This document shows, in pieces, positions 1,696-43,609 of a stretch of DNA of 64,000 nt. Each line of letters opens with the position of its first letter. Position 1 is the stretch's first letter. The translations under genes and the position numbers were made by a program. The notes beneath the pieces were generated by a model. That model saw nothing but the letters and a program-made list of their open reading frames with translations, searched no databases and was not told the origin of the DNA. The stretch is from an uncultured Phycisphaerales bacterium. GTDB lineage: Bacteria > Planctomycetota > Phycisphaerae > Sedimentisphaerales > Anaerobacaceae. The stretch spans positions 896,001 through 960,000 of the forward strand of contig OY970359.1 in assembly GCA_963718665.1 (NCBI GenBank), written 5' to 3'.

Positions 1696-1700
1696 AAACT

Positions 1701-1821
1701 GGGCCCCCTGTTGCAAAACCAACGCAGTAACTTCTCGGGGGCAGGCGGGCGGATGCGGAAGAACCCTGCCATTCTCCGACGTAACTCGTCGGAGTAAGTG
1801 GCAGGGCTAAGTATTTTAAGG
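1701..1821 (+). repeat. structured dispersed repeat, copy 1 (candidate ncRNA or non-autonomous element)
   Basis: Aligns with 43499-43609 (37/40 identical over the 5' core) and with 32954-32993; CCCTGCCA/TGGCAGGG stem with inner hairpin. Confidence 0.8.
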
Positions 1822-30818: not shown

Positions 30819-31030
30819 TATAGTCGCTCGTTATTAGTCGTTAGTATTTAGTATATCGTACTGAGGATAATTCTGCCTCAAATCTACATGGAAATCAAGT
30901 GCTGAAACGCATAAAAGATTAGACACGGATTCAACCCGTGAGATGGCGGCTTTGCCTATCTCACGGGTTTAACACTGATTAACACGGTTTTTCTTATTAG
31001 TTGTAAATGCAGGGCGGGGTTTACCCCGCC
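30819..31030. repeat. repeat cluster: heptamers, ACACGG-type nonamers split by an AACCCGTGAGAT/ATCTCACGGGTT palindrome, GGCGGGG-TTTA-CCCCGCC hairpin
   Basis: read directly from sequence. Confidence 0.75.
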
Positions 31031-31049
31031 AATTTATTCGGAAGTTTGA

Positions 31050-31376
31050 TTAAGCGTAGGCGTATTCTTTCTTTTCAGGCACAAAATCCACTCGCACCGC
31101 ACAATTTAATGCTGATGCAATCTTTTCCAGCATACCCATCGAGTGGCCGCTGTACTCGGTACTTTCAAGCCGGCTTATTACCGATTGTGTCGTTCCTACG
31201 AGTCCCGCAAGCTGTTTTTGGCTTAACCCTGCCTTGATGCGCAGACGGTGTATCTGCATCGCGATATGTGCCTTCTCACGTTCACCGCGAACGGATGTAG
31301 CACGCTTGGCATTGCCTTTTATATATCGGCCGTGAAGTATCTTCACCGCATCGGTTGTTCTTCTTTTATTACGCAT
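31050..31376 (-). CDS. XRE/HigA-like HTH antitoxin
   Basis: LRIKAGLSQKQLAGLVGTTQSVISRLE. Confidence 0.88.
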   Translation of the reverse strand: MRNKRRTTDAVKILHGRYIKGNAKRATSVRGEREKAHIAMQIHRLRIKAGLSQKQLAGLVGTTQSVISRLESTEYSGHSMGMLEKIASALNCAVRVDFVPEKKEYAYA

Positions 31377-31379
31377 ATT

Positions 31380-31435
31380 CACAATTCCTCTTCATACGTA
31401 TGGGCAGCGGGGTTCTTAATATAATTGACTTTACT
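31380..31435 (-). pseudogene. possible C-terminal remnant of the cognate RelE/HigB-like toxin
   Basis: SKVNYIKNPAAHTYEEEL* ends just before the antitoxin start; no full ORF upstream. Confidence 0.45.
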
Positions 31436-31605
31436 GAGCAATATCGCAAATATGCGATATTAGTTCAAGTGATTTTTGCTCAATTGCTAAATTTTTTAAC
31501 TCTTATGCCAAACGGCTCTATTGCCTGAAATCGCTGGCTAAATCAAACGTCGGGCTGGAAATAATTAGCGTTGGGATTATTTTTACTCTTGTTTATACCC
31601 ATTCC

Positions 31606-32490
31606 TTAACTATGTTTTAGTCCTTGGCGAACAGACAGAGAGGCAAGGATGTTTTCAGCAATACTAATTCTCCGAGTCGCGCCATTTTGGTCCCCTGCCG
31701 CGAAGTAAAGCCAATAGAGTAAGGTTGACTTATTATACAATCGCAGTGGGCGCCGAGCCACACCAGCGAATACTGACCTGAGTTGATTCAAATAATATTC
31801 GCCGACTTGATTTGGCTTAGCTATCTTGATGATCTTTGTATACTCCCCAAATAGATTCTGACCTGTTTTTGTCTTGTAAAAAACACCGTACCAATCGTGA
31901 GACCCGAGCACCTCATCCAATTTATAACGTGAGGTTTTGTTAATACGACCATCCCGACGAAGGAGGCGGTTTACAGCAACACCCAAGGGAAACAAACACC
32001 AAAGGTCGATCGCGTGAGTTTGAGCGACCGCTTCAATGGTAGTCCAATTAACTTGCATACCATACGGATCAAGGAAGAGAACAGCTCGCCAGTGGGTCCA
32101 GTCACATTTCTTACAGAGCTTCTTCAGATATATGTTGGCATCATCATTCTTTACCTTAATATTATCATCGGGGTACTCATCCTGCAACCGCGATAGTTGT
32201 GCGGTATTATTTGGTTTGTTGTCGATGAAAATGTACTTGTCAAATTTAGGTTTAACTTGAAGAGCTAAGCGTGCTGAACCATCGAATACCTGCGGAGCCG
32301 GTTTTGGGAAAAACCCTTGAATGTTATTTTTTGTGTTTCTGTGAATTGGTGAGTGACTGCCGCTTCCGGCGAAGGCATCAACGTACATTAATTGGAAGGG
32401 CTTGTCCTTCATGAAAGTCGTGAATGCAGCCAAATATAGCCCAAGTCGGTATTGTTTGTCTATTGTATGGACTCCACCGAACTGGTTCAT
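31606..32490 (-). CDS. three-Cys-motif partner protein (TcmP)-like, methyltransferase-like fold
   Basis: FGG..T..K..L..YL, YVDAFAGSG, GSARLAL, LFLDPYGMQV.W. Confidence 0.8.
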   Translation of the reverse strand: MNQFGGVHTIDKQYRLGLYLAAFTTFMKDKPFQLMYVDAFAGSGSHSPIHRNTKNNIQGFFPKPAPQVFDGSARLALQVKPKFDKYIFIDNKPNNTAQLSRLQDEYPDDNIKVKNDDANIYLKKLCKKCDWTHWRAVLFLDPYGMQVNWTTIEAVAQTHAIDLWCLFPLGVAVNRLLRRDGRINKTSRYKLDEVLGSHDWYGVFYKTKTGQNLFGEYTKIIKIAKPNQVGEYYLNQLRSVFAGVARRPLRLYNKSTLLYWLYFAAGDQNGATRRISIAENILASLSVRQGLKHS

Positions 32491-32767
32491 GGTCGACCTC
32501 GGAATTAGTAAGAATAATCACTTCATCTTGCTATAATTTTACCTTCTTTTGTTTCCCGATTCTACCGACAAAACCTGCCCGAATACAATCATTTTTACCA
32601 CCCTTCTTCGCCTAAGGGCTACGCAGGGCAGGCGAAGACCACCGAGAACCACGAAGGAAAATATAAATATAATTCTTCGTGCCCCCTTCTTTTCTTCGTG
32701 GTAAACCCTGAAAAAACAAGAACTTATAGCGATACACATAAATTCTTTTAGTAAAGTTGCATTTTCC

Positions 32768-32795
32768 TTGACTTGACTGTTTTGTTTGATAGAAT
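32768..32795 (+). promoter_or_regulatory. sigma70-type promoter upstream of the structured leader and HNH gene
   Basis: TTGACT-16 nt-TAGAAT. Confidence 0.55.
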
Positions 32796-32802
32796 ACTAA
32801 CC

Positions 32803-33020
32803 CGCTGAGTCAGGAGCTCGGCGTAACAGCACAGCAGTGCAAGCATTTCGGGACAGCAGTCCCAAGTTTCGCGCCTTGTGCGCAAGGTAAATCAAAACAA
32901 TTTTCGTCTTGTGTTTTGTTGTTTGTTTTGAAATTTGGGATTTTGAAAAAAAAGGGTCCCCTGCTGCGGAACCAATGGAGCAGGTTCTCGGGGATCTTCG
33001 CTTCGCTCCGAGGAGAGGAT
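32803..33020 (+). ncRNA. candidate structured leader RNA of the HNH-AP2 gene, including copy 3 of the dispersed motif (32954-32993)
   Basis: hairpins CGCTGAG/CTCGGCG, GGGAC/GTCCC, CCTTG/CAAGG; 40 nt motif 33/40 identical to 43499-43538. Confidence 0.45.
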
Positions 33021-33023
33021 GTT

Positions 33024-33623
33024 ATGAAGACGCGCGTGAACATATCGTTTGAGGTTCCCTGTTGGCTCGAATATATCTGTGTGTGTCCTTTACTTATCTA
33101 TCGCCGGCTGCGTTTCGGCTATACCTTCCGCAAAATTCCGCTCACACAAAATCAGGTTACGATTGTTGACCCCAAAGATTATTACTGGCTTGTTAAGTAT
33201 AACTGGTTCGCCTGCCGGTCGTTGCAGACATGGTATGCACATCGCGCCGCCAAAATAAACGGCAAACGTTCCGGAACTTCGATGCACTGCCAGATTATGC
33301 CCTTACCCAAAGGTCTTCTCGTTGACCACGCCAATGGCGACGGCCTCGATAACCGCCGCGCTAACCTCCGTCCCGCCACTCCCGCTGAAAACGCCCACAA
33401 TCGCCGCAAATACTCCACTCCAACGTCTTCTAAATTCAAAGGCGTTCGCTGGCACAAATACAGTAAGCAATGGGCCGTTTCAATTGTTATCAACCACAAA
33501 TCAATCTTTATCGGCTACTTCGACATCGAAATCGAAGCCGCAAAGGCGTATGATGAGGCGGCGAAAAAATACCACGGCGAGTTTGCCCGACTGAATTTCC
33601 CGAAAGGAACTCCTGTGTTTTAA
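33024..33623 (+). CDS. HNH endonuclease with AP2 DNA-binding domain
   Basis: IPLTQ..IVD, MHCQIM, VDHANGDGLDNRRANLR, ENAHN, SKFKGV, AAKAYDEAAKKYHGEFARLNF; AGGAG RBS. Confidence 0.92.
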   Translation: MKTRVNISFEVPCWLEYICVCPLLIYRRLRFGYTFRKIPLTQNQVTIVDPKDYYWLVKYNWFACRSLQTWYAHRAAKINGKRSGTSMHCQIMPLPKGLLVDHANGDGLDNRRANLRPATPAENAHNRRKYSTPTSSKFKGVRWHKYSKQWAVSIVINHKSIFIGYFDIEIEAAKAYDEAAKKYHGEFARLNFPKGTPVF

Positions 33624-33750
33624 CTGTCCGCTACACGCTACCCGCTGTCCACTAATTTGGCCGGATTTACACTGGCATTAGGGTTGCGGTTAGGTATAAT
33701 CTTGTCAAAAATGCCGGCCAGGATGGCCGTAGTGAATAATCCTTGAGGAT

Positions 33751-36700
33751 ATGAGCGCAAAGACGTCAAAACTGATTTTGATTGCGATTGCACTGTTTGT
33801 GTCGGCTGGTTCGGCATACGCGATTGACAACACACAAGCAAAGGCCTTCGCCGGACGCGACGTTCAAATCACCTCTGACGAATTAACCAATTATCACGAC
33901 GCCAACGGCACGGATGTTATTGTCATCGATGGAAAGGTCTCGATTGCGGCAGGCGCGGATACGTTCGCGGGCGAAAAAGCCGTCGTATGGTTGAAAAGAA
34001 ACACGGGAAGCAAAAACATCGGCGTCTGGTGCTGCGTATCGGGCGATATTTCCGCGAAAAGAGGCAACGGCACTCGAATAGTCGGGCTTAACTGGGAAAC
34101 AATCGAAAACGGTGGTTCGACAGGCTCACCACAAGGCAAAATGATGGTTATCAGTTTCGAGGCGACGGGTGAAGTATTCGTTACGGCAAAGAAAATTGAG
34201 CATACAGACGTCCGGGGCGGAGAATTTTACAACTATGCATTCACCGTGACCGCCAAAACATATAAAAACTTCGCGGACCAGTGCGCCGCAGTTTCGCCAG
34301 TGATAGTTACATTGGCGACCGAGGCGAATCGCCCTGCTGCCAAACCAAAGGCAGCGACTGCCACGGAAGGTGGGGCAGGATTTATTGACCAGTTGTTTGG
34401 CCCCGCAAAAAAACCGCAGGCGTCTGTTGAGAAAGTCCCGCAGCAGGTAAAAATACGATACCCCGTAAATTTAGCGCCGGCCGGCGAGCAGGAGCCAAAT
34501 ATCGAATGGGGTATCGCAACATCGCCCGCCGCGGACGGCTCATCAAAAACCGAGGAATTAGCGACGGTAATAGGGCGATTTTACCTGTGGCAAAAACAGG
34601 ATGAGCAGGGCCGATTGCTGGAAATGCAGGCGGACAACGCGGTTGTATTTTACGCCGGCGAAAAAACCGGCGAAGGCGAAGAATCGGGCGGGGTAAAGGA
34701 CATCGGGACAAAAGGGGCAATTAAGGCAATTTACGTCCGCGGCGACGTCGTTATGACCGAGGGGTTGCGCACGATACGAGCCGACGAGATGTATTATGAT
34801 TTTGAGAACAAAAGAGGTCTTGCAGTCAACGCGACGATGCGAACATTCGATGTCGAGCGCGGGGTACCTATATATGTCAGGGCTGCCAAAATCAGGCAGG
34901 TGGCAGAGGGCAAATTCACCGCCGACAACGTGGTCGTAACAAGCAGCGAGTTCGCCACCCCCCAGGTTTCGCTTAATGTGTCGAACATCATCGTTACCGA
35001 TACGACAACAATAGACCAGGAGGCGGGTCAGAGCAAAGACAGCAGTTACGACGCGCAGATGTGGGATATCCGGCTGAAAACCGAAGATACAACGGTATTT
35101 TATTGGCCCTATATGCGGAGCAATCTCGAAAGGCCGGACACGCCCCTCAAGAGTTTGCGTATCGGCAACGACAATATCTGGGGCACAACGATAGAGTCGC
35201 GGTGGTTTTTGTCTCGATTGCTTGGTCTGCGCGAGCCGGATGGAACCGATGAAACATTCGATTTGGATTACCTCAGCAAGCGGGGCGTCGGCACGGGAAT
35301 GGACGTGGATTACCAGCAGGATGAACGGCTGGGGAAAATCACGAGCTATTTAATCGACGACAGGGGTGAAGACCGGCTGGGACGGGTTGCCTTCAGGCGA
35401 AACCTCAAACCGCCGGAAGATTTACGCGGAAGATTCAGCTGGGTCAACCGGGAATTTATGCCGTATAACTGGCAGGTTACAACGGGCATCGATTACGAAT
35501 CGGACGAAAACTTCCTCGAAAGTTACCGCAGACACGAGTATAACACCGGCCCCGACCGCGAAACGTATATACACCTCAAAAGAATCGAAGATAACTGGGG
35601 TCTCGCGTTTCTGGTTAAGGGGCGGATTAACAATTTCGCCGACGAATTGGATGAGATGCCGACAGGCGAATATCACCTGACGGGCCAGTCGATTTTCGAC
35701 GACAAGATGACGCTGTACAGCGACACCTATAGCGGGCGATACAGACAAGAAATAGGCAAGAATCACACAACGGAAATGGACCAGGATTATTTCGGGTTTG
35801 GCACGCACAGGACCGAGGTTGATTTGCCGATGTGGACCAATGAAGCGGCGGTAAAAGTGGTGCCTTTCGCCGCGGGAACGGTTGGCTATGACGGACGCAG
35901 CGGGTTTGACAGGTCGCTGGTGGACGGCAGCGACACCGGCAAAGTCGGTGATGAAACCGTTGGAATCGGCGAATTTGGAGTGCGCAGCTCAACCGAGTTC
36001 TGGAAAATATACCCCGACGTCAACAGCCGATTGTGGGACCTAAACGGATTACGACACATCATAACGCCCGGCGTAAGCACTTCGATTTACGGGGCAAGCG
36101 ACACTGAGGTCAAGCAGCACAACGCGGCACATGTAGAGCTGACGCAACTATTGCAGACAAAACGCGGTCCCGATGAACATATTGCGGACTGGATGCGGCT
36201 TAATATGGGCATGACGTGGTTCGAGGATAACGACAAGAGGACGACCGGTTCGGGACCATACAGATATTTATGGAATAATCCTATGACGCCCTTACGGACG
36301 TTAGCTGCGCCGGAAATATTGAACGGCGACCTCGACCATGGACTTAAGAGATTCGAGACATACGGGCCGGTGAGAGATTACTTCGATACCGACTATATGT
36401 GGCAGATAAGCGACACTACGGCATTGTTGAGCAGCGGGTATTATGACATTCACAGCGGGACCGTCGAACAGTTCGATATCGGGTTTTCGCGGACGAGATT
36501 GCCCGACCTGAGCTATTACGTCGGCACCAGGTACCTGCAGGACGTCAACGTGCTGAACAAACACGGCTCCAACGCCTTTGTGTGCGCGGTAAGCTATGTC
36601 CTCGACTCGCGATACACCGTTGTTTTCTCGCAGCAGTATGATTTCCAATACAGGGCAAACGTTGAAAGCGAAATAACGCTCATCAGGCGTTATCACCGGA

Positions 36701-36840
36701 TGTTCTGGTCGATATCAGCCAGCACGGACGCGTCGCTCGACCGCCAGTCGATTATGTTTAACATCTGGCCGGAAGGCGTGCCGGAATTAGTGACAGGCAG
36801 CAGACGATACTCCAGCTTAAGCAGCCCCGGCGAGCAGTAA
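33751..36840 (+). CDS. lptD: LPS-assembly protein LptD-like outer membrane protein
   Basis: signal peptide, OstA-like IRADEMYYD, DYLSKRGVG, LRHIITP, beta-barrel pattern. Confidence 0.75.
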   Translation: MSAKTSKLILIAIALFVSAGSAYAIDNTQAKAFAGRDVQITSDELTNYHDANGTDVIVIDGKVSIAAGADTFAGEKAVVWLKRNTGSKNIGVWCCVSGDISAKRGNGTRIVGLNWETIENGGSTGSPQGKMMVISFEATGEVFVTAKKIEHTDVRGGEFYNYAFTVTAKTYKNFADQCAAVSPVIVTLATEANRPAAKPKAATATEGGAGFIDQLFGPAKKPQASVEKVPQQVKIRYPVNLAPAGEQEPNIEWGIATSPAADGSSKTEELATVIGRFYLWQKQDEQGRLLEMQADNAVVFYAGEKTGEGEESGGVKDIGTKGAIKAIYVRGDVVMTEGLRTIRADEMYYDFENKRGLAVNATMRTFDVERGVPIYVRAAKIRQVAEGKFTADNVVVTSSEFATPQVSLNVSNIIVTDTTTIDQEAGQSKDSSYDAQMWDIRLKTEDTTVFYWPYMRSNLERPDTPLKSLRIGNDNIWGTTIESRWFLSRLLGLREPDGTDETFDLDYLSKRGVGTGMDVDYQQDERLGKITSYLIDDRGEDRLGRVAFRRNLKPPEDLRGRFSWVNREFMPYNWQVTTGIDYESDENFLESYRRHEYNTGPDRETYIHLKRIEDNWGLAFLVKGRINNFADELDEMPTGEYHLTGQSIFDDKMTLYSDTYSGRYRQEIGKNHTTEMDQDYFGFGTHRTEVDLPMWTNEAAVKVVPFAAGTVGYDGRSGFDRSLVDGSDTGKVGDETVGIGEFGVRSSTEFWKIYPDVNSRLWDLNGLRHIITPGVSTSIYGASDTEVKQHNAAHVELTQLLQTKRGPDEHIADWMRLNMGMTWFEDNDKRTTGSGPYRYLWNNPMTPLRTLAAPEILNGDLDHGLKRFETYGPVRDYFDTDYMWQISDTTALLSSGYYDIHSGTVEQFDIGFSRTRLPDLSYYVGTRYLQDVNVLNKHGSNAFVCAVSYVLDSRYTVVFSQQYDFQYRANVESEITLIRRYHRMFWSISASTDASLDRQSIMFNIWPEGVPELVTGSRRYSSLSSPGEQ

Positions 36841-43465: not shown

Positions 43466-43498
43466 GTAATTGCCGATTGCCGATTGTTGATTGAAAGT

Positions 43499-43609
43499 GG
43501 GTCCCCTGTTGCAAAACCAAAGGAGTAACTTCTCGGGGGCAGGCGGGCAGATGAGGACTAACCCTGCCACTCGCCAAGGGCGAAGATGGCAGGGCTAAAT
43601 ATTTTAAGG
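43499..43609 (+). repeat. structured dispersed repeat, copy 2, preceded by a (TTGCCGA)n heptamer array
   Basis: aligns end to end with 1701-1821 except for a different inner hairpin. Confidence 0.8.

Follow-up and report, generated by a model that had tools for sequence, protein, structure and literature searches.

The original work on HNH-AP2 homing endonucleases, known to us through the papers that cite it, is reportedly that of Magnani et al. in 2004. The combination of an HNH with an AP2 domain is now a described homing endonuclease architecture (PMC10448857, PMC3794426; here and below, the papers are cited for their accessible parts). In ICP1-like phages such proteins, named IPA-HNH, are free-standing, patchily distributed and about 200 residues long, with HNH_3 at the N-terminus and AP2 at the C-terminus (PMC10448857). 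Hairpins that sequester the ribosome binding site (RBS) regulate I-TevI, I-TevII, I-TevIII, segB and mobE, the last two being free-standing genes (PMC2988022). Here we analyse an HNH-AP2 gene in a window of 64,000 nucleotides (nt) from an uncultured Phycisphaerales bacterium of the order Sedimentisphaerales (contig OY970359.1, positions 896,001 to 960,000). The gene is preceded by a leader that contains a 48-nt hairpin module, motif A, which recurs elsewhere in the genome. The source genome of the window, 2.61 Mb in one contig, is called G000, and the other G and L labels stand for genomes and loci of relatives; positions followed by a strand sign refer to G000, other positions to the window. 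Our preferred interpretation, to which we give a probability of about 55%, is that this nuclease gene, free-standing and of the homing type, has a leader that damps its translation and is built from a modular structured repeat of intergenic DNA.

How does this locus compare with the described systems? Its protein has the domain order and size of the phage HNH-AP2 endonucleases. Unlike the phage genes, it belongs to about 20 to 34 divergent chromosomal copies (about 50% identical) per genome in free-living Sedimentisphaerales, some of them at syntenic sites, and it has a conserved N-terminal helix and no phage or intron context. I-HmuI, the nicking HNH homing endonuclease of phage SPO1, matches a large part of the protein in profile and fold, but the window protein has a C-terminal AP2 domain instead of helical or helix-turn-helix (HTH) modules, is not intron-encoded, and is a nicking enzyme only putatively. 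Motif A in turn recalls the modular interspersed repeats of bacteria, such as REP/BIME of enterobacteria and BOX of pneumococci. Like them it is a short imperfect palindrome with tens of intergenic copies, co-oriented with genes and combined into mosaics of sub-modules, but it has a different sequence, is found in one bacterial family and is strongly enriched before one gene family; unlike REP, it flanks neither of the two RAYT-like genes of the genome. An HNH open reading frame (ORF) behind a conserved structured non-coding sequence is also the arrangement of HEARO/IscB with its omega-RNA. IscB has about 400-500 residues and its omega-RNA a few hundred nt, whereas here a protein of 199 residues, with a DNA-binding domain of its own and without RuvC, bridge helix or other IscB parts, follows a 48-nt motif that has no Rfam match and is absent from most homologues. 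As in the phage leaders, a structure just upstream of the nuclease gene would, by prediction, pair with its Shine-Dalgarno (SD) sequence; in contrast to what the accessible part of PMC2988022 describes, it is a dispersed and reusable module, found also at unrelated genes and in 3' regions, with two competing pairings for its GGGG and with no promoter-switch logic known.

Motif A and its HNH-specific subfamily

Motif A is present in 22 copies in G000, as found by iterated nhmmer and in agreement with a covariance model, R1. Eight of these copies sit at most about 115 nt upstream of an HNH-AP2 start (1715706+, 928954+ in the window, 278670-, 2219476-, 666180+, 301572-, 2061749- and 1146743-). 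With a background of 28/2360, taken from a crude map of 2360 ORFs, the binomial P of this enrichment is about 1e-10. The remaining 14 copies have mixed contexts, before or behind unrelated genes. Some precede a glycosyltransferase-like and an mtnA-like gene, others stand behind genes in convergent pairs (939498+, which is the window copy at 43499; 543294-, behind a GIY-YIG gene; 177530+). Of the 22 copies as a whole, most are co-oriented with an adjoining gene.

The copies fall into subfamilies, which were sorted by eye from 61 distinct copies. A1, with the loop GCGGAACCAAUGGRGCGGG, is joined to a tail B (AUCUNCGCNNCGCUCCGAGGAG followed by the SD; tail pattern CUNCGC..CUCCGAGGAG), and this combination stands before an HNH-AP2 gene in 6/6 of its copies in G000 and in most copies sampled in other species. 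In A2 (GCAAAACCAAAG.AG.AAC) the tail reads RCAGGCGGG.GGAU.AGGA; the copies at 1701 and 43499 belong here, together with copies at unrelated genes. A third group has a tail hairpin GACGC..GCGUC. Both the enrichment before HNH-AP2 genes and the HNH-specific subfamily are real. The original prediction, made on the window alone, had compared the motif before the nuclease gene with 43499-43538 and given 33/40 ungapped identity, which we reproduce with the exact 40-mer at 32954-32993. Identity to 1701-1740 is 31/40, and the latter two are alike in 37/40 positions; no further match with at most 3 mismatches occurs elsewhere in the window, and none occurred in 100 shuffles. Since the window copy is A1 and the other two are A2, that comparison was made between members of two subfamilies. 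The copies at 1701 and 43499 also share sequence beyond the motif (72 nt at 90%, another 23 nt at 96%, and a REP-like hairpin).

Predicted structure of the module and the leader

How might such a module act before a nuclease gene? Motif A is one module in a set of short structured interspersed intergenic repeats, comprising modules A, C, D, E and F, tail B, REP-like hairpins and heptamer arrays, whose combinations vary before and behind genes in this bacterial family. Under the preferred interpretation, module A would be read on the sense strand as an RNA hairpin. Before HNH-AP2 genes, A1 is fused to tail B with its putative anti-SD stretch, and the GGGG of the module could pair alternatively with its own CCCC or with the CUCC of the tail. 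The more stable of the predicted folds buries the RBS, so that the leader, if it is made as RNA and folds as predicted, most likely damps translation; a potentially harmful nuclease would be held at a low level, as is known for the homing endonucleases of phages. In the consensus fold that RNAalifold prefers for 16 A1+B leaders, a hairpin CCUGYU/RGCRGG comes before a pairing of UUCUCGGGG in motif A with CUCCGAGGA; this pairing buries the SD start, and in two of the pairs both partners have changed. In the window copy, the minimum free energy is -26.6 kcal/mol with the SD paired and -25.2 kcal/mol with CCCC/GGGG forced.

Is motif A itself an RNA structure? For the pairing analysis, 65 copies (58 distinct) were aligned out of 281 R1 matches, taking the best per genome. 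In the 58 distinct copies, 88% of the cells of stems P1 and P2 pair, compared with 47-55% when the partner is slid. Among 694 cells, 112 are G-U; such cells would mismatch on the other strand, and the hairpin therefore appears to read on the sense strand. At pair 6:58, all 5 sequences with C have G as its partner, compared with only 3 of the 53 that have U. In these alignments the pairing potential is conserved, which falls short of proof of selection on an RNA fold.

The same conserved bases can also be read as DNA, in the form of a portable sigma-54 promoter with TGG at -24 and TTGC at -12 in exact spacing, from which the nuclease genes would be transcribed and, in the case of 1701 and 43499, short RNAs ending at the REP-like terminator. 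TGG is indeed nearly invariant 5' of the hairpin, TGG-N9-TTGC fits the spacing, rpoN is present in the genome, many copies lie 15-40 nt before a start codon, and a hairpin with a U-run follows the copies at 1701 and 43499. However, conservation is highest in the supposed spacer CCCCUG and in the downstream CUCGGGG, which complement each other, and among the stem positions it is lowest at the G of the -12 GC (pair 16:41 is unpaired in 35/58). Moreover, pair 6:58 covaries, a canonical site seen in the genus (TGGCAC-N5-TTGC, in G007) looks unlike motif A, and for the window copy there is already a sigma-70-like promoter 190 nt upstream. A promoter of this kind is thus very unlikely.

Returning to the translation-damping leader, several observations weigh against it. 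The covariation score of the 58 distinct copies, 0.191, is not above that of shuffles (0.200; 447/500 reach it), most stem changes are one-sided, and the alignment was fitted to the model and so favours its structure; the 19 copies of G000 show the same. The one-sidedness holds for the pair that the original prediction had singled out as well: between the window copy and 43499 the changes are U-G to C-G and G-U to G-C in the pairing register used, so that the claimed G-U to G-C is found and the claimed U-A to C-G is not. That prediction had also described a structured leader of about 220 nt. The length follows from the position of the promoter and there are local hairpins, but taken in full the leader does not stand out from shuffles in its stability (z = -1.25; 21/200 shuffles are equally stable). 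The two alternative folds given above lie within 1.5 kcal/mol of each other, hence prediction cannot decide which of them forms. In addition, 4-5 of the 22 copies are antisense or ambiguous to their neighbours on the crude ORF map, and 19 of the 27 HNH-AP2 paralogues of G000 have no module A; their leaders have other hairpin modules, heptamer arrays or neither, and the module is therefore not required for the family. Finally, motif A is conserved beyond the need of a plain hairpin, which suggests a trans-acting factor or, alternatively, recent spread or gene conversion.

Distribution of the motif and the nuclease across genomes

R1 finds the motif in 25/41 genomes, namely all 24 of family f1 plus G000, and in 0/16 of other families. 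Each of the 24 related genomes has 2-26 copies. Three genomes have the motif without any HNH-AP2 match (G013 with 8 copies, G021 with 7 and G024 with 11), and three genomes of other families have HNH-AP2 matches without the motif (G026 with 18, G033 with 9 and G040 with 11). The copies inspected in the HNH-AP2-free genomes stand before a GIY-YIG gene in G013 and before uvrB in G021, and in G024 with no gene close behind on the strand of the copy; in G016, a genome with 3 HNH-AP2 matches, a histidine kinase gene follows one of the copies. In public genomes, the motif is just upstream in 3/80 HNH-AP2 loci, 2 of the 80 having less than 100 nt of upstream sequence. Motif A and the nuclease are separable in both directions.

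This distribution bears on the central proposal of the original prediction, that the nuclease works with the leader RNA as its dedicated guide or cofactor, in the manner of HEARO/IscB, with the copies at 1701 and 43499 as non-autonomous derivatives. The motif does lie directly before the ORF, and A1+B occurs solely before HNH-AP2 genes in G000. But it is missing at 19/27 paralogues and 77/80 homologous loci, orthologues carry other modules in its place, the protein consists of HNH_3 and AP2 only, there is no HEARO or other Rfam match, and no TnpB/IscB-type domain occurs in the genome. Nor do 1701 and 43499 look like derivatives of the locus: they have another tail, the A2-type subfamily to which they belong is also found in genomes where HNH-AP2 was not found, and they lie in ordinary intergenic repeat landscapes. 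In terms of autonomous and solo copies, 8/22 are before HNH-AP2 genes and 14/22 elsewhere, beside 27 HNH-AP2 loci in G000. Two expectations had been set beforehand for the case that the proposal was wrong, that homologues would lack the upstream motif and that the motif would sit beside random genes with no enrichment; the first is mostly what is seen (77/80), and the second failed because the motif is enriched before HNH-AP2 genes. By its distribution the model is largely refuted, and motif A as a private RNA partner of the nuclease is not supported; we regard it as scarcely tenable.

Module swapping at orthologous sites

What happens to the leader when the gene itself stays? Orthologues of the window gene in the two sister species G019 and G006 have 96-97% amino acid identity, but their nucleotide homology to G000 begins only at 32996 (in tail B) in G019 and at 33018 (ATG-6) in G006. 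Where G000 has motif A, the leader of G019 contains another hairpin, module E (CCCCCGCCGUUUUGC..GCAAAACGAGACGCGGGGG), together with two tails, and that of G006 a third, module F. An exchange of leader cassettes between orthologous genes is clearly seen here.

The gene as a whole is also either present or absent at its site. Upstream of a conserved gene for a 1029-residue protein, HNH-AP2 is present in 7 of 15 assessable genomes (G000, G006, G019, G014, G008, G002 and G015) and absent from the other eight (G007, G017, G013, G010, G003, G005, G018 and G016); G012 was left out, as its site ends in a contig break. A free-standing gene with presence and absence at its site is thus supported. In G007 and G017, the closest relatives by the flanking protein (90%), a 2.77-kb segment that includes the gene is missing, and in G007 the flanks join directly. 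The counterpart of this segment is an RCC1-repeat gene in G006 and nothing in G007 and G017. The spacer upstream of the 1029-residue protein is a hotspot of cargo turnover. The empty junction of G007 contains a canonical TGGCAC-N5-TTGC site. The 1029-residue protein itself (33751-36840, plus strand) has a signal-peptide-like start, is found in 28/31 related genomes searched, and has no Pfam or NCBIfam match.

One may ask whether motif A is instead a DNA target, that is a recognition, homing or operator site of HNH-AP2 proteins, so that the genes would lie beside their own targets and the protein-less copies would be unoccupied ones. The enrichment beside HNH-AP2 genes (8/22 copies) and a weak within-genus correlation between motif count and HNH-AP2 count (Spearman 0.49, P 0.014, with kin not independent) would fit. 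AP2 domains are reported to prefer GC-rich DNA (PMC10448857), and the motif has CCCC and GGGG runs. However, paralogues that are only about 50% identical share a motif with hardly any variation, genomes where HNH-AP2 was not found have kept it, and at orthologous sites the gene stays while the module changes, the reverse of what insertion of a gene at a fixed target would give. This reading is very unlikely too, if anything a shade more so than a portable promoter.

Swapping of modules is expected as well if they are DNA-level miniature mobile repeats of a REP/MITE-like kind, which insert or recombine preferentially beside nuclease genes, have no RNA function, and owe their conservation to recent spread or gene conversion. 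Several observations point in this direction. Modules are swapped at one position between close orthologues, other modules interrupt motif A in a nested manner (at 301572-, 2215019- and 1570139+), the copy number varies from 2 to 26 among the 24 related genomes, the genome has two Y1_Tnp (RAYT-like) genes flanked by hairpin repeats, and a block of 499 nt with a GIY-YIG gene and motif A is 95% identical in G008 with flanks that do not align. On the other hand, the repeats beside the RAYT-like genes are not A but hairpins of another family (..GGGGCUAAAU), and no clean pair of filled and empty sites or target duplication could be defined. At the 43499 site, for example, a heptamer array begins 4 nt past the stop in all five genomes compared, and the arrays differ in G019, G006, G007 and G017; after the array comes A in G000, G019 and G006, F with a REP-like hairpin in G007, and more arrays in G017. 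A comparison of filled and empty sites gave no module A boundaries or target duplications there, because every relative differs over the whole spacer. Furthermore, the copy before the mtnA-like gene, which is orthologous between G000 and G020, is 47/48 identical compared with 86% over the surrounding 2.7 kb, so that this copy is clearly under constraint, and the G-U pairs together with the orientation bias favour a strand-specific transcribed structure. We therefore consider mobile DNA repeats without RNA function unlikely, though deserving of attention.

There is also a scenario that joins the two sides. The hairpin cassettes and the expanded HNH-AP2 family might be one co-evolving selfish system, in which A1+B would be a riboregulatory switch, its GGGG alternating between CCCC and the anti-SD tail, that is read by some factor, possibly the nuclease itself, and in which nicks made by the nuclease near the start codon would drive rapid cassette swapping between paralogues and species. 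If so, it would be a nuclease with a cis-RNA mobile module of a new kind, unlike the RNA-guided systems. We regard this as a speculation with little chance of being correct as a whole.

The nuclease and its family

The original prediction had called the product of the gene a homing-type HNH-AP2 endonuclease, and this is borne out by comparison of sequence and predicted fold. Pfam places HNH_3 at residues 93-124 (PF13392, E 5.6e-8) and AP2 at residues 136-185 (PF00847, E 2.8e-9). In 25 aligned homologues D101, H102, N104, D109, R111, N114, N123 and N126 are invariant, so every presumed catalytic residue is conserved. By profile, residues 38-148 match residues 6-120 of I-HmuI in the PDB (1U3E, E 1.4e-5), and Foldseek gives the same structure with probability 0.96; for the AP2 part, plant AP2/ERF structures come first both by sequence profile and by fold. 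The N-terminal segment, which had been described as extra, is so relative to I-HmuI, where the match begins at residue 38, but it is not peculiar to the window protein: the pattern P..WL...P.L.YR...YG..FR.I is conserved across the HNH-AP2 family and corresponds to a helix of residues 13-31 in the AlphaFold2 model (mean pLDDT 85; Foldseek concordant).

How large is this family? In G000, tblastn gives 27 HNH-AP2 loci with 43-53% identity, two of them split into two high-scoring segment pairs (HSPs), and the search of the genome set counts 29 matches. HNH-AP2 is found in 28/41 related genomes; among these are 21 of the 23 further members of the genus, where the matches number up to 34 per genome, and some genomes of two other families of the order. 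A protein database search gave 2046 proteins at E <= 1e-5, whose names say no more than 'AP2 domain-containing protein' or 'HNH endonuclease', and homologous loci sampled elsewhere come from metagenome-assembled genomes of uncultured Sedimentisphaerales (Phycisphaerae). Judged from these sequences, the ORF is a member of a lineage-specific family of free-standing homing-type HNH-AP2 (I-HmuI-like) genes. Our literature search found no description of an HNH-AP2 expansion in Sedimentisphaerales, nor of motif A.

A tree of 31 HNH-AP2 proteins, which omitted only paralogue HSPs with an internal stop or partial coverage, is star-like, with 16 of 28 inner branches open and the bootstrap not settled; as a result, one origin of the syntenic HNH-AP2 genes cannot be separated from several. 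In this tree the window protein and its orthologues in G006 and G019 sit on a very long branch of 1.27 changes per column. The sequences of this lineage have changed at an unusually high rate, particularly in the N-terminal segment. Three paralogues (1175870+, 2486513+ and 1629336+) have a relic second coding end, ..YHGEFARLNF, after the stop and a short heptamer array. Of the ORF, only the final 80 nt of the AP2 coding region (33520-33600) have nucleotide matches to 9-11 paralogues. The AP2 coding end may be a hotspot of recombination or gene conversion.

Features of the locus

The features are collected in Table 1. The promoter, the hairpins from 32803, the T-rich tract and the motif about 30 nt before the ATG (the GGGG ends at 32993) all have the positions given in the original prediction, which was also right that there is no intron, phage or transposase context: none of these was seen adjoining 33024-33623, where the neighbours are an XRE-type HTH and a TcmP-family gene. 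The 5' part of the leader has 1-4 further matches in the genome per 20-nt bin. Leaders that resemble it are found before the paralogues 278592-, 122457- and 666252+, and in other species at L079 and L083. Against the covariance models of Rfam 15, the whole window has 0 matches at the gathering score, and 32700-33100 has a single chance-level match (E 4.6). DNA reads from 4 runs yielded contigs only, with extra depth over the repeated parts.

Table 1. Positions in the window of the features at the nuclease locus, at the two protein-less motif copies and of the variable segment.
Feature	Position	Strand	Basis and remarks
Sigma-70-like promoter TTGACT-16-TAGAAT, extended TG	32768..32795	+	10/12 hexamer matches; consensus match only
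5' part of leader, 3-4 short hairpins	32803..32890	+	Fold; leader type common to a few paralogues
T/G-rich low-complexity tract, degenerate heptamer-type array	~32897..32953	+	
Motif A, subfamily A1 hairpin module: P1 GGGUCCCC/GGGGAUCU, P2 UGCUGC/GGAGCA, loop ..AACCAAU..	32952..32999	+	R1 match G000:928952-928999, 62 bits
Tail B (AUCUUCGCUUCGCUCCGAG) and SD GGAGAGGAU	32994..33020	+	Kept in 16/16 aligned A1+B leaders
HNH_3-AP2 endonuclease gene, 199 residues	33024..33623	+	Pfam
Heptamer-type array CUGUCCG CUACACG CUACCCG CUGUCCA, immediately 3' of stop	33624..33653	+	
Motif A, A2, tail GCAGGCGGGCGGAUG.., no gene directly behind	1699..1746	+	R1 match G000:897699-897746, 61 bits
REP-like hairpin CCCUGCC..GGCAGGGCUAAGUAUUUU, behind the 1701 copy	1764..1817	+	
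Heptamer array TTGCCGA x3, begins 4 nt past stop of upstream gene	43470..43493	+	
Motif A, A2, between convergent genes (3' region)	43497..43544	+	R1 match G000:939497-939544, 62 bits
REP-like hairpin CCCUGCCA..UGGCAGGGCUAAAUAUUUU	43560..43605	+	
2.77-kb segment (XRE-HTH, TcmP-family gene, leader, HNH-AP2), missing in G007 and G017	30902..33672	.	

Other repeats of the genome

Period-7 arrays are by far the commonest short tandem repeat in G000, with a changing unit sequence, and they dominate intergenic DNA in the order Sedimentisphaerales. With at least 3 copies of the unit, 171 arrays are intergenic and 105 lie in crude ORFs, and periods 8 to 15 have at most 19 intergenic arrays each. In the window they are found for example at 1652-1696, 43470-43493 and 33624-33653. 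The arrays start right behind stop codons and change fast between species; among the HNH-AP2 paralogues, 12/27 have one at or after the stop. A density of heptamer arrays that tracks the number of HNH-AP2 genes was suggested by 7 genomes and failed with 15 (Spearman 0.38, P 0.17), and G038 and G030 have no HNH-AP2, yet 21 and 11.5 arrays per 100 kb. The TAACTGA heptamers, which are intergenic direct repeats in Beggiatoaceae and cyanobacteria (PMC4679880), are alike in forming hundreds of short period-7 intergenic arrays, often near start codons. The arrays described here differ from the accessible account of those repeats in that the unit varies from array to array and in that arrays also begin right after stop codons.

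Two Y1_Tnp (RAYT/IS200-like) genes lie outside the window, at G000:C1:442788-443231 (minus strand) and 1274075-1274527 (minus strand). The hairpins that flank them (CCCCGGCC..GGCCGGGGCUAAAU) are of the same family as the terminator-like hairpins at 1764-1817 and 43560-43605. An IS200/IS605 or TnpB context for the locus was considered and rejected: the genome has no PF07282 match, and the Y1_Tnp genes lie elsewhere with another repeat. The small GIY-YIG gene at G000:C1:543248-543610 (minus strand; compare loci L004 and L168), also outside the window, has motif A 5 nt past its stop; a GIY-YIG gene of G013 has a copy in front of it, and a similar gene end in G021 has one behind it. From these arrangements it is possible that GIY-YIG with motif A is a second small-nuclease cassette using the same module.

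Conclusions

The element is a variation on what is known, both of homing-type nuclease genes that have structured leaders and of interspersed repeats that are modular, and the tempting reading as a new RNA-guided nuclease is removed as unsupported. What does it mean for the organisms? In a free-living lineage of planctomycetes, each genome of 2.5-3 Mb maintains 20-34 nuclease genes of the homing type, intact and divergent, under purifying selection. Together with them goes an undescribed, strongly conserved family of 48-nt structured motifs with subfamily-specific tails, which makes motif A a candidate for a new class of cis-regulatory RNA. If the leaders act as proposed, they would offer a test case for how selfish nuclease genes in a chromosome are kept harmless.

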